From a virus (taxonomy: Duplodnaviria > Heunggongvirae > Uroviricota > Caudoviricetes): a stretch of DNA of 35,161 nucleotides. The stretch lies in the IMG/VR virus record IMGVR_UViG_2700989521_000009. The stretch is one strand, 5' to 3'. The position numbers were made by a program. Shown here one piece after another: positions 21,001 to 30,000 of the stretch. Each line of letters opens with the position of its first letter. Position 1 is the first letter of the stretch.

Positions 21001-24000
21001 TTCTTTTCGCACTCGATGAAGTATCGGCGTATCTGGCGGCCTTTTTCGTTACGTTCAACCATCGCAAGCTCTTTGGCTGTGTCGAGGGTGAGGTGGTAAT
21101 CCTTGCGGCGGCGGCCTGGAGTTTTCGCCAAATTTGGCGAAAATAGAATGTAGTCTAAATTTTCTACGAATCCATACTCGTTTAGCTTGGCCCGTATCCA
21201 GTTAGAAAAATCTTTACCTACCTCTAAAAATCCATGCAAATCACGCGCGTTCACCAGAAGCGTAGGTTCATTTGAGATTGTACCTTCAAACACAGGGATG
21301 AGTTGAGTGGTCATGATGACCTCCTTTGGCTTTTTTCGAGAAATGCCACCACAAAATGTGGTGCCGGGAGGCTCGAAACGGCCCAAAAGATACCGCGGAC
21401 TTATTCCCCTTGCGGGTGTTGTATTCGTCGCCCTCCCGACATTGATCGGGGATGTGACCGCACACTGTGCTATCACTGAATAACAGGCATAAAAAATCCA
21501 ACACTGACGGGGTTGGTTTAATCCGCTTTTGGGAGGTTTTCGAGGCCTCGGCGCGGAGTATAGTCAGTATTGGACGCAGTCGTCAACCATCGCCGTTTCT
21601 TTGGCTGTGTCGAGGGTGAGGTGGTAATCCTTGCGGTTGTGACCGCCTCTACCAGATGTTTGCTTTCCCAAATTGGAAAGCAAAATATAGTCTTGATTTT
21701 CAATGAATTCGTATTCTGAAATGCGATTTGTAATCCATGCCGCAAACACCTTTTTCACGCCTAAAAAAGCATGCAGATCGCGGGCATTGCAGAGTAGGGC
21801 TGTTTCGTTGTCGATAGTGCCGTTGAATACGGGGATGAGTTGATTAGCCATAATTATGACTCCTGACGTTTTAGTATTGACTGCCACCTTAGTGGGGTGG
21901 CGGGCTTCAACTACCGCGTCAGACGGCGGAGCGTATTTCCCGAAAGGGTATTGTATTAGGCTCTCTCGACCCGCCATTGATATGGCGATACCTGTAAACA
22001 GGCATAAAAAAGCCGCAAAGCTATCGGGTGCGGTTGACCGCTGACGTTGTAGTGCGGTCAGTATGCGATAGCTCTGGCAGATTTGTCAAATCGTGCAGTA
22101 ACATCCTTTTCTTCCTTGCCATTTCTCAATGATGACAAAGGGTGGATTCGGATTGGTATTGGGACAAAAGTGAGACACACAAAGCTTTGCATCGGCTTAC
22201 AAAGCTTTGCATGTTTTTCAATGTTGGGACGTGTGAGCGCAGAAATGACGGGCTATCTAATTGATTTTAAACGATACGTAACCAACTTTAAAATCTTTGC
22301 ACGCCAGTTCGCAGGTTTTACAGCCAGTGCAGCGGCTGGAATCGATAAAAAATCCATATTGTGTGGTCATGGGCTACTCCTTAAACCTTTTCGATCTGGA
22401 CAAGATTGCTGTGCGACGGGTTTCCCTTTGCCAGCGGTGAAGGGCGGTGAGAGGTCAGAATATTGATACTGCCGCCGTGATCGACCCGGTCACCAAACAT
22501 ATCCGCTTTAAGCCACGCACCTTGCCCGATGGCGGTAACGCCAGGCAGAATACGCGGAGTCACTTTTGCGGCAATCAGCATTTCTCCATTATTGTTAAAT
22601 ACCCGCACGGTATCGCCATGACGGATACCGCGTGCCTGAGCATCAATGGGGTTGATCCACACCTCTTGTGGGCAGGCCTGCTGTAACACATCAATATTGC
22701 CGTAGCTGGAGTGGGTACGCGCTTTGTAGTGGAAGCCCGTTAACTGCAGTGGATAGGTTTTCCGCAGGGGATCGTCCCAGCCATCAAAACCTGGGGTATA
22801 CGCAGGAAGGGGATGAATAATTTCATCTTTTTTCAATTCCCAGGTATCTGCAATCTTCGCCAGTCGTTCAGAATAAATTTCGATTTTCCCCGAAGGTGTT
22901 TTCAACGGGTTTGCCTGTGGATCTTCACGGAATGCGCGGAAAGCGACGTAGTGTTCTTCCGGGCATTTTTTCTTAAAGATCCCGGTCGTTTTCATCTCCT
23001 CGTAGTCGGGCATCTCAGGGTTACGTTCCTTCGTTTTCGCATGGAGATATTTGATCCATTCATGCTGACTGCGACCTTCAGTAAAGGTTTGATAAACGTC
23101 TGGTCCTAAGCGTTTGGCGACTTCACTCAGCATCCAGTAGATGGGTTTGCGTTCAAATTTTGCTGAGGTTGCGGGTTGGGCGAGGATCACATAGCCCATA
23201 TTCCCTGCAGATTCATGAGAGATAAGGTCTTCTTGCTCTGTTGGCATCAGGTCGGGCAACAGGATATCGCAATACTTAGCCGAGGCCGTCATGAAGTGGT
23301 CAATGCCAACAATCATCTCGCACTTGCTGTCATCCTGAAGCACCTCATGGGTGTGATTGATGTCGCCATGTTGATTGATCAATGTGTTACTGGCGTAGCA
23401 CCATAAAAACTTGATGGGGACATCCAGTTTTTCTTTTCCACGAACACCATCACGGGTCGCGGTCATTTCCGTACCATGGTCGATGGCATCTGTCCATGTA
23501 AAGACGGAAATCTGCGTTTTAACAGGATTCTCAAGCATCGGGAACCATTCTACCCCCAGATCCCAGCTACCTTCGCGTACACCTGAGTTGCCGCCGTTTA
23601 TGCCAACGTTACCGGTGAGAACGGAAAGCATGGCAATAGCGCGGGACGTTTGCTCGCCGTTGGAATGTCGTTGTGGCCCCCAACCCTGACAAATATAAGC
23701 AGGTTTTGCTGAACCGATCTCTCGCGCCAACTGGATAATTTTTTCTGCCGGGATGCTGGTGATTTTTGCTGCCCATTCCGGCGTTTTAGCTATGCCGTCA
23801 GGCCCTTCGCCCAGAATATAGGCTTTATAATGCTCGTTACGTGGTGCGTTGGCGGGCAGCGTTTTTTCATCGTAACCAACACAATATTTGTCGAGAAATG
23901 GCTGATCGACCATGTTTTCAGTAATCAGTACCCAGGCAATCGCACAGGCAGTGCGCCATCGGTGCCAGGGCGAATGGGCAGCCATTCATCTTCACGCCCG

Positions 24001-27000: not shown

Positions 27001-30000
27001 TCACTTTTTCGCTGGCCTGTTGTACCGTTGCCGCTGCACTGCGCAGGGTGAACGGTAAAGAAAAACCGCCTGCAGCCAGCGCCAGAGAACCTATCGCTGT
27101 TGATTTAACGTGTGTTCTGCGGCTGATGCCCACCATTCGGTCATTTTTGGACATAACTCACTCCCTGTTCTTTATCGTTATATAAATGTTTATGTATTGA
27201 ATATTTAGCGCGCTAACAATAGAGGGGGTCTACCCATTTTGGGTTGAGAATTATTAATCCACATCAATAGAAGGGTATGAGTAATAAGGTGGGATTATGT
27301 TGTATGTTCAAATCGCCGGATATGTCATATCCGGCGTTCAGTCGATAATGTATTACTGCGGTTCGGCAGGCGCGCCATCCTGGGTAGACTGCGCGGGAGC
27401 AGAGACGTTAGCGCTGGTGGTGCGGGTGTAGAGAATTTTATGCGTATCATTAGCACAATGCCCGACGACCTGGGAATCAGGCTGATCAACCTGGTCATTG
27501 GGTACAATACTTAATGTGAAGCTGCTTTCGGGTACGCCATTATTGATAATGCGCTGTGATATATCGCTCTGTATGCGCTCACAGGATCCCGGCGCGGCGA
27601 GTACCGCGGGTGAGGCGAGGGCGAGCAGAAGCGCGGCACAGCAGGTTGAGAGTTTCATCATAAGCTCCTTACGCGAAGATAACTTCTTTAAGCATAGCAT
27701 TTAACGTGTAAAGTACTGTATTTGCTACTATGATTGAGAATCATCTCTACTCTCTGGTGACTGTTGTGAAATACAAATTACTACCATGCTTACTCGCGAT
27801 ATTCCTCACAGGATGTGACCGCACAGAGGTAACACTTTCATTTACCCCTGAGATGGCCAGTTTCTCTAATGAATTCGATTTTGATCCGCTGCGTGGTCCG
27901 GTAAAAGATTTCACTCAGACATTAATGGATGAGCAAGGTGAAGTGACGAAACGTGTTTCTGGGACTTTGTCGGAAGAAGGCTGTTTTGATTCACTCGAAT
28001 TACTGGATCTGGAAAATAATACCGTGGTCGCTCTGGTACTGGACGCCAATTATTACCGTGATGCCGAGACGCTGGAGAAGAGAGTACGTTTACAGGGAAA
28101 ATGCCAGCTAGCAGAATTACCTTCTGCCGGGGTGAGTTGGGAAACCGATGATAATGGTTTCCAGATTGACTTTATCCTCACTAAAGGATAAAACTGATAA
28201 TATCCCCTTAAGCGGATAAATTTGCTGTGGACGTATGACATGATGAGCTTTCAGAAGATAGCGGTCGAACGTTTTGACAGGCGTTGGAATACTGAGCGAA
28301 CGGTTTTACTTCGCTTGCCACAGGAGGATATGTGTCAGACATTCGGTTTACCTTCATCTGTGAAATATGAATCAGATGGAGGCCCAGGCATCGCGCGGAT
28401 CATGGCGTTTTTGATGGGGTCCAGCGAGGCGCTTCGCGATCGTTATGATTTTATGAAATTCCAGGTCTTCCAGTGGTTGATTGGCGCAACGGATGGCCAT
28501 GCAAAAAACTTCTCCGTATTTATTCAGGCTGGCGGCAGTTATCGACTCACGCCATTTTACGACATCATTTCAGCATTTCCGGTCCTTGGCGGTACGGGAA
28601 TACACATCAGCGATCTCAAACTGGCAATGGGGCTTAACGCATCCAAAGGCAAAAAAATGGCAATCGATAAAATTTATCCGCGACATTTTTTGGCGACAGC
28701 AACGGTGCTGAGATTCCCGGAAGTGCAGATGCATGAAATCCTAAGTGACTTTGCCAGAATGATTCCGGCAGCACTGGATAACGTGAAGACTTCATTACCG
28801 ACAGATTTTCCGGAGAACGTGGTGACGGCAGTTGAAACCAATGTGTTGAGGTTGCATGGACGGTTAAGCCGAGAATACGGTAGTAAGTGAGATATGGGGT
28901 TTGGTCGTTGTTAATGAGCAACCATGACCGCCAACGACTGGATTCTCCCTTGGTTTATGTTGGTGCGCATAATGTATATTATGTTAAATCATATCTGAGT
29001 GATGCGAAGTGCTTTTCTGGTAGTCGTTATTCGTTCAGGGTTCCAGAACTTAAGCCTCTCCTCTTTCATAATTGGCCTGTGCATGACGGATATAGGCTGG
29101 CTGGTATGCAGATTTGCCGTTTGCCGCATCTTCCCAGCGTTGAAGACTCAAGCTGGCAAACCGCGTGCAAATGAGCACGCCCTCTTTCCATCAACACTTC
29201 AGGCAGCTTGCGGGAATGAGTCCACTACGGTATCAGAAATGGGAAGTGGGTGTCTCTCTGATGCGTAATGGAAAAATACTGGCTACGGGAGAAAATGTCT
29301 CCCTAGGGACAGTAAATAAAAGCAAAGTATCTCTGGGTTTAAGCGCAACCTATGGACAAACAGGAAACAAGGTTGCAGCCGGAACCGTCCAGTCAGTCAT
29401 TGGTGTCACTTTTATCTATGAATAATTGTGATTTTGATCTTAGTCTATGCGCTCCATTCACGAAAATTGCGCGGATAATTATTTTGTGAAGGCTATTATC
29501 CTACACCTGTAAGAAAATCCGCGCACAATTGAAGCCAGAGTCTTATTTTTTATATTGAAAAATATGTTAATTTAAACACTATGAGAGATGATGCTTAACT
29601 TATCGTATTTAATCTATTGTTTAACGATAATAGATTAAAAATAGAAAGAGAGTAGTCCCCTACTCTTATATATCCATGTTGGCGATAATCCCTTTGTATG
29701 TACTGTGCATCATCGCTATTACAAATCCTAATAATTCATTTCCACACAGGATAAGTAGATGAAGAAAAAAATTGAATCCTACCAGGGTGCTGCAGGTGGT
29801 TGGGGTGCTGTTAAATCCGTAGCGAATGCAGTACGTAAGCAGATGGATATACGCCAGGATGTTATTGCCATGTTTGACATGAATAAGCCAGAGGGCTTTG
29901 ACTGTCCGGGTTGTGCATGGCCAGATCCTAAGCACAGTGCGTCATTCGACATTTGTGAAAACGGCGCAAAAGCAATCGCCTGGGAAGTCACGGATAAGCA

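Follow-up and report, generated by a model that had tools for sequence, protein, structure and literature searches.

Both catalytic genes of the ynfEFGH-dmsD operon are broken in IMG/VR record IMGVR_UViG_2700989521_000009, a 35,161-bp stretch of DNA (here, the window) that corresponds to contig LAIG01000142.1 of the short-read draft assembly GCA_001017215.1. The ynfE gene has lost 136 bp and ynfF a single nucleotide, and ynfG, the next gene along, is cut short by a Shiga toxin 1a (Stx1a) prophage, phiPOC-J13. We hold with high confidence that ynfE and ynfF are true pseudogenes inherited in a lineage of Shigella dysenteriae and Shigella boydii, that the Ynf reductase was lost, most likely by neutral decay, and that phiPOC-J13 later settled in ynfG. 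The host is most likely a non-type-1 S. dysenteriae, because NCBI names the exact 248-amino-acid (aa) YnfE product of the window 'molybdopterin-dependent oxidoreductase [Shigella dysenteriae]' and labels a variant of equal length either S. boydii or S. dysenteriae. The chromosomal proteins of the contig bear the NCBI label S. dysenteriae.

The ynfEFGH-dmsD operon encodes a selenate reductase. Its molybdenum catalytic subunit, exported by the twin-arginine translocation (Tat) system, is YnfE; YnfF is a paralog of YnfE, YnfG is the electron-transfer subunit, and YnfH is the membrane quinol oxidase (PMC5203670). Selenate reduction is read by the red-selenium growth test of Guymer et al. 2009 (per PMC5203670). 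The window resembles the operon of Escherichia coli K-12 and Salmonella, a paralog of DmsABC, in its gene order (ynfD-ynfE-ynfF-ynfG) and in a DNA identity of 98-99.5%, and the best NCBIfam matches of its fragments are to YnfE and YnfF. It differs in that both catalytic genes are frameshifted, ynfE is 45 codons short, only 28 codons of ynfG are left, and close relatives of the window strain have an amber codon in ynfH.

Results

The two lesions were mapped by aligning window positions 21900-27600 with E. coli AST198, in which ynfE agrees with K-12 in every codon and ynfF carries one nonsynonymous difference from it. Exactly two indels were found across ynfE and ynfF, and alignment to the K-12 DNA of both genes reproduced the same two. 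Chance is not at issue, because the lesions are discrete differences from an ortholog that is 98-99.5% identical. A sequence-only reading of the window had put a 1-nucleotide (nt) deletion in ynfF near 23946-23950, after the peptide PGTDGAL, and a deletion of about 136 bp in ynfE near 26476, costing about 45 codons after NSKLVV. Its coordinates, flanking peptides and size were all correct at base level: the first lesion lies between 23948 and 23949, and the second is exactly 136 bp at 26475/26476 (Table 1).

Table 1. Operon genes, lesions, open reading frames (ORFs) and prophage in the window
Feature	Position	Strand	Basis
Stx1a prophage phiPOC-J13, right-hand 22.2 kb, terminase to antirepressor genes	61..22285	+	
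ynfG remnant, nt 1-85, 28 codons	22286..22370	-	K-12 homology ends at ynfG nt 85
ynfF pseudogene, 2,423 nt (2,424 when intact)	22381..24803	-	99.5% identity to K-12/AST198 ynfF
ynfF 3' part, 534 aa, begun at an out-of-frame ATG and leading into the original frame, without signal peptide	22381..23985	-	
YnfF N-terminal fragment ORF, 292 aa (283 aa per gene callers, later start)	23925..24803	-	
1-nt deletion site in ynfF, K-12 nt 855/856 (codons 285-286)	23948..23949	.	alignment
ynfE pseudogene, 2,291 nt (2,427 when intact)	24864..27154	-	98-99% DNA identity and synteny with K-12/AST198
ynfE 3' part, original frame open, 515-aa ORF from an internal TTG, without signal peptide	24864..26411	-	
YnfE N-terminal fragment ORF (248 aa) with putative Tat signal, 4Fe-4S motif and beginning of molybdopterin domain	26408..27154	-	
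Retained single copy of 8-bp repeat TCACGACC (coding strand GGTCGTGA), junction of 136-bp deletion	26476..26483	.	
ynfD, intact, 101 aa, upstream neighbor of the dead operon	27353..27658	-	gene order as in K-12

The ynfE lesion has the structure of a deletion between direct repeats. In intact ynfE, a perfect 8-bp direct repeat, GGTCGTGA, bounds the 136 bp (K-12 nt 672-679 and 808-815), and AST198 shows TCACGACC at each end of the segment that is missing here. One copy is left at the junction, and the repeat makes placement ambiguous, such that the lost DNA is either K-12 nt 672-807 or nt 680-815. The chance of an 8-bp match at an arbitrary junction is about 4^-8. Because the repeat flanks the segment and one copy was retained, the junction structure suggests that the deletion most likely arose by replication slippage or by short-homology illegitimate recombination. 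The ynfE deletion is thus like other short-direct-repeat (slipped-strand) deletions in that the 136 bp are bounded by repeats in intact genes and leave one copy behind, and it differs from them in that its mechanism is proposed from the junction structure.

The loss amounts to 45 codons plus 1 nt, and therefore residues are removed (MFGNNPAETRMSGGG...TDTAAGR) and the frame is shifted. The product runs from NSKLVV into KMNGFLFARAPMPRWLRVLPGY, 24 out-of-frame codons that end at a stop, for a total of 248 aa. By position, between ynfD and ynfF, and by a DNA identity to E. coli of 97.9-99.5%, the gene is the ortholog of ynfE. It does not, however, encode the single product of about 808 aa, scoring above 1675 bits, that is expected of a full-length YnfE (NCBIfam NF041885). 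Instead, one fragment matches profile positions 2-225 with 449 bits and the other positions 291-805 (of 805) with 1152 bits, and positions 226-290 are missing from both. Judged from its sequence, ynfE is a pseudogene of the NF041885 family and is not predicted to be a functional member of it.

In the N-terminal stubs of both YnfE and YnfF, a putative Tat signal and the Cys-rich Fe-S motif are still present. In the YnfE stub, the twin-arginine motif reads SRRTHVK rather than the SRRTLVK of K-12, an L15H change at a hydrophobic consensus position (codon 15, window 27110-27112) that may be a further sign of relaxed constraint.

We also considered whether the ynfE deletion and the single-nucleotide polymorphisms (SNPs) near it could be products of gene conversion or ectopic recombination involving the ynfF paralog. 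The two genes are about 72% identical in DNA, SNPs at nt 819 and 828 adjoin the junction, and at this point identity to K-12 goes from 97.9% to 99.5%. Of these two SNPs, however, just one is shared with ynfF, and the SNP allele was matched exactly over 29 nt in about 1,774 E. coli genomes in which ynfE is intact. Moreover, SNP density falls gradually with no step at the junction, and the endpoints of the deletion are the intragenic 8-bp repeat. With a single matching SNP and an allele that is common in intact E. coli ynfE, gene conversion was rejected, and we give it next to no chance. Relative to K-12, ynfE carries 19 SNPs in nt 15-600, and SNPs are sparse in its 3' half and in ynfF. The pattern looks like an ordinary allele mosaic that is unlinked to the deletion.

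The ynfF lesion is a single lost G. The coding strand reads CTGCC where intact ynfF reads CTGGCC (GGCAG versus GGCCAG on the plus strand), and thus the missing base comes from a 2-nt run with no long homopolymer. The product continues from PGTDGAL into PVRLPGY and stops. Position, between ynfE and ynfG, and 99.5% identity mark the gene as the ortholog of ynfF, but frame is lost at codons 285-286, and the single product of about 807 aa above the full-length cutoff of 1650 bits (NCBIfam NF041884) is not encoded. Rather, the two fragments match profile positions 1-277 (581 bits) and 277-798 (1169 bits). An exact-product look-up with the 292-aa form of the N-terminal fragment gave no match, and the 283-aa form was matched.

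Either lesion might have been an error of the draft assembly, with both genes intact in the cell. The window is, after all, a short-read draft contig with insertion sequence (IS) ends at both borders, and frameshifts of ynfE and ynfF that are confined to a single assembly, some of them in homopolymers, are known in two E. coli loci (L030 and L035). A basecalling error, however, cannot account for the loss of 136 bp, as the sequence-only reading had argued, and the ynfF base was not lost from a long homopolymer. Above all, the same junctions recur in many independent assemblies, in complete genomes and in assemblies from Sequence Read Archive (SRA) runs of different strains. The artifact is effectively refuted because the junctions are replicated across independent assemblies; it was rejected on that ground, and we regard it as vanishingly unlikely.

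To be specific, 26 loci were fetched from other assemblies and from SRA-run assemblies (numbered within L002-L028), and carriers among them include the complete chromosomes CP026807, CP026823, CP026825, CP026828, CP026832, CP026834 and CP026840. Every fetched locus that keeps the ynfE site has the identical ynfE junction (L002-L007, L009, L010, L012, L014, L015 and L017-L028). Three loci are without it (L011, L013 and L016), and in these, larger 5' deletions of ynfE remove the 136-bp site. The 24-mer of the ynfF junction is the same in 17/17 fetched carrier loci that keep that part of ynfF. The carriers are not copies of one strain, as they fall into at least seven haplotypes over a shared segment of 1,698 nt (0-5 SNPs from the window), in addition to structural variants. 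The exact 248-aa YnfE stub is encoded on 23 contigs, its variant on 102 and the 283-aa YnfF stub on 54; the products are listed in 34, 124 and 62 collection blocks, respectively, and bear the name S. dysenteriae or S. boydii.

Neither junction was found in E. coli. The junction k-mers of the two lesions are ACAGCAAGCTGGTCGTGAAGATGAATGG and GATGGCGCACTGCCTGTGCGATTG. A search of 5,426 complete E. coli genomes, made with short probes for which only a match that spans the junction can seed, gave 0 matches to either junction. A scan of species-representative genomes likewise gave 0 matches to the ynfE junction; S. flexneri, S. sonnei and S. dysenteriae 1 lay outside this coverage. Thus, the junctions are identical across several distinct strains of one lineage and absent from the complete E. 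coli genomes searched, and we conclude that the ynfE and ynfF lesions are inherited markers of an S. dysenteriae/S. boydii lineage and are not private to the window strain.

Sister lineages have decayed further on top of the 136-bp deletion. Some carry an IS1 element at ynfE nt 1336-1344, where 9 bp of target are duplicated, or a 1,252-bp IS3-family insertion at ynfE nt 188, and in others ynfF, ynfG and ynfH have been lost in a deletion that extends from ynfE nt 2425 to dmsD nt 380. The larger 5' deletions mentioned above overlap the 136-bp site. Finally, ynfH has an amber codon at W101 (TGG to TAG) in most close relatives (L009, L011, L014 and L024) and lacks it in L012 (CP026828). The amber codon is probably present in the window strain too, in which ynfH lies beyond the prophage on another contig. 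The outright deletions, the IS insertions and the ynfH amber codon are what would be expected of an unconstrained locus.

The truncation of ynfG, which the sequence-only reading had reported alongside the other lesions, is of a different kind. The remnant covers TIGR02951 (DMSO_dmsB) profile positions 1-25 and continues into phage DNA, giving a fusion ORF of 37 aa (22257-22370); forcing a global alignment past the end of K-12 homology produced only the meaningless indels expected of phage sequence. Over window positions 61-22285, identity to Shigella phage POCJ13 (KJ603229, positions 40475-62699) is 100.0%, and the prophage boundary falls at the attachment site in ynfG, with the window holding the right junction only. 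POCJ13 was reportedly first described as an Stx1a-converting phage in S. flexneri 2a. Indeed, phiPOC-J13 integrates site-specifically into S1742/ynfG (PMC4193171), and it is carried by isolates of S. dysenteriae 4 and S. boydii 19 (PMC4606844). In both its identity and its boundary at ynfG nt 85, the window prophage is like phiPOC-J13 and the 933W-like Stx prophages found in ynfG (S1742).

The order of phage and lesions can be read from strains without the phage. Carriers exist in which ynfG is intact at 205 aa and no prophage is present (L003, L004/L009, L011-L016 and L024), and therefore the ynfE and ynfF lesions predate prophage integration. We conclude that ynfG was truncated separately and later, by the known disruption of the phiPOC-J13 attachment site. 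Nor do the lesions come with the phage, because 7 of 10 sampled E. coli hosts of the 37-aa YnfG'-phage fusion peptide keep a single full-length ynfE (808 aa) and ynfF (807 or 798 aa as called). Thus, whereas most of the sampled E. coli hosts have full-length ynfE and ynfF, here the operon had already died when the phage came in.

In all, 11,138 collection blocks list the fusion peptide, and ynfG therefore is a very common integration site of prophages that encode a giant LPD5-domain protein (loci L029-L038). E. coli AST198 (L001) itself has a degraded prophage at the same ynfG site. In two E. coli genomes, L030 (CP027452.1) and L035, a prophage occupies ynfG, and both ynfE and ynfF are broken by other lesions. 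In ynfE these are a 1-nt deletion at nt 651 plus single-base losses from an A-run and from a G-run; in ynfF they are an additional A in an A-run at nt 938 and an E525 stop. Such lesions reflect either decay that occurred independently in operons whose ynfG is broken or errors of long-read sequencing at homopolymers. In assemblies labeled S. sonnei (L041-L044), many contigs begin exactly at ynfF nt 1352, with ynfG, ynfH and dmsD intact downstream, and no IS terminus was found at those contig starts. The break may be an assembly effect of the paralogy between ynfE and ynfF.

The prophage copy in the window may not be whole. Positions 1-60 are unmatched to phiPOC-J13 and are an IS3-family terminus, with the same 40-mer at L012:45, L026:4997 and L022:4809 (reverse complement). 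Unlike phiPOC-J13, the window copy thus seems to carry an IS insertion at phage position ~40474, immediately upstream of the gene for terminase, and the prophage might be defective.

Discussion

How the operon died can be proposed as a series of steps. In an ancestor of the lineage, ynfE would have lost 136 bp between the two copies of GGTCGTGA, and in the same ancestry one G would have been lost from ynfF. Each lesion shifts the frame such that translation ends within 7-24 codons, leaving N-terminal stubs that lack most of the molybdopterin-binding domains and 3' remainders that lack a signal peptide. The dead operon then decayed differently in sister lineages, and in the window strain the Stx1a phage phiPOC-J13 later entered its normal site in ynfG.

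With both catalytic genes frameshifted early, 45 codons gone from ynfE and 28 codons left of ynfG, no Ynf selenate/tellurate reductase catalytic subunit is predicted to be made, and the lineage should lack Ynf-dependent selenate and tellurate reduction. The sequence-only reading had judged that the whole ynfEFG unit appears non-functional, and our results agree, as two frameshifted paralogs and a truncated ynfG would leave no working enzyme to be encoded.

One way in which the genes might still work is by bypass of the ynfF frameshift, through ribosomal frameshifting or transcriptional slippage, or by assembly of the split halves into an active enzyme. Indeed, the 3' parts of both genes are open with no further stops, and the N-terminal stubs retain the Tat and Fe-S motifs. 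The ynfF site (GCACTGCCTGTGCGA), however, offers neither a slippery heptamer nor a long homopolymer, the molybdopterin domain encoded by ynfE is 45 codons short, a signal peptide is absent from the 3' parts, and ynfG is reduced to 28 codons in the window. Moreover, sister lineages delete ynfF-ynfG-ynfH or carry IS insertions, and close relatives carry the ynfH amber codon. Programmed frameshifting was rejected on sequence, given the missing slippery site and the deletion of the gene in sister lineages, and activity by any of these routes is very improbable.

Why the Ynf reductase was lost is the more difficult question. We infer that relaxed selection, typical of Shigella, most likely let the operon decay neutrally, and the neighborhood fits this reading: ynfC is cut, about 64.5 kb is missing, hipBA and ydeQRST have suffered deletions, and the contig ends in IS elements. 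Gene loss and decay in Shigella are general (PMC2617782; Hershberg et al. 2007, cited there). The window resembles that process in its lineage-fixed frameshift and deletion pseudogenes, in the later IS1 and IS3-family insertions and larger deletions of sister lineages, and in the other truncated genes and IS ends of the same stretch. It differs in that the ynfE and ynfF junctions and the order of events have been worked out here.

Alternatively, inactivation of the Ynf reductase may have been advantageous, and the loss pathoadaptive rather than a product of drift. Lesions struck both paralogs and are fixed in a lineage that has diversified, different and independent ynfE/ynfF lesions occur in other genomes, and Touchon et al. 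make the case that some of the losses in Shigella were positively selected (PMC2617782). In the parts of that paper's table of Shigella-specific losses that were read, however, the ynf genes are not among the entries, and the DNA around the operon is full of unrelated decay. The lesions of other E. coli are partly in homopolymers, unverified, and all behind a ynfG broken by prophage, and the S. sonnei contig starts at ynfF nt 1352, which have no IS terminus, could be either a lesion or an assembly break. We consider selected loss in this lineage unlikely. A broader version holds that loss of Ynf is non-neutral in Shigella and in related invasive or toxigenic E. coli, where advantageous inactivation would recur independently, or else that in the S. 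dysenteriae/S. boydii lineage the dead operon turned ynfG into a cost-free landing site and eased stable phiPOC-J13 lysogeny; to this we give a small chance.

Neutral, inherited decay remains our preferred reading, and three points weigh against it or limit it. First, the species label was taken from NCBI protein names and not from the assembly record. Second, apart from the two indels there are 0 in-frame stops in ynfE or ynfF (K-12 frame), and with one disabling lesion per gene, decay within ynfE and ynfF of this strain is slight. Finally, no fetched locus has one site intact and the other broken, as would be needed to tell which of the two primary lesions came first.

The genes, the function of the operon, the phage and its attachment site, and pseudogenization in Shigella were already established, and the truncated products are in public databases. 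Literature searches found no paper text that names ynfE or ynfF pseudogenes in Shigella. What is new is detail, namely, the description of the junctions and the order of events, and not a new kind of thing, as biologically this is ordinary lineage-fixed gene decay. The practical consequence is that annotators should treat the ynfE and ynfF frameshifts as real and enter the genes as pseudogenes instead of 'correcting' them. Both junctions could also serve as simple lineage markers for the S. dysenteriae/S. boydii group, because they are absent from the complete E. coli genomes searched. Furthermore, phiPOC-J13 entered an operon that was already dead, and thus lysogeny cost the host no Ynf function. 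Beyond correct annotation, the finding has little importance.

Other features of the window

To the right of the prophage, the window reads ynfG remnant, ynfF, ynfE, ynfD, a truncated ynfC and a heavily deleted hipA-ydeP-ydeO-ydeN region. The ynfC gene (27766-28167) is cut after nt 402 of 711, and its junction (28154-28167, an overlap of about 14 nt) leads to DNA upstream of hipB. Absent in between are about 64.5 kb of K-12-equivalent DNA (K-12 1592528-1657056), including speG, ynfA, ynfB and rspA, and sister lineages have IS elements within the ynfC-hipB interval.

Farther along, at 28222-28890, hipB and the 5' part of hipA have been deleted, leaving an ORF for the C-terminal 216 aa of HipA. 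At 29086-29240, about 155 nt of unmatched sequence stand in place of about 3.65 kb that comprise part of ydeQ, the fimbrial genes ydeRST, and yneL. Both ends of the contig are IS termini. At the right-hand end, the last 60 nt (35102-35161) form a terminal repeat of IS1 that agrees exactly with the IS1 copies of L019-L027 and abuts ydeN, and the contig therefore ends at an IS1 insertion.

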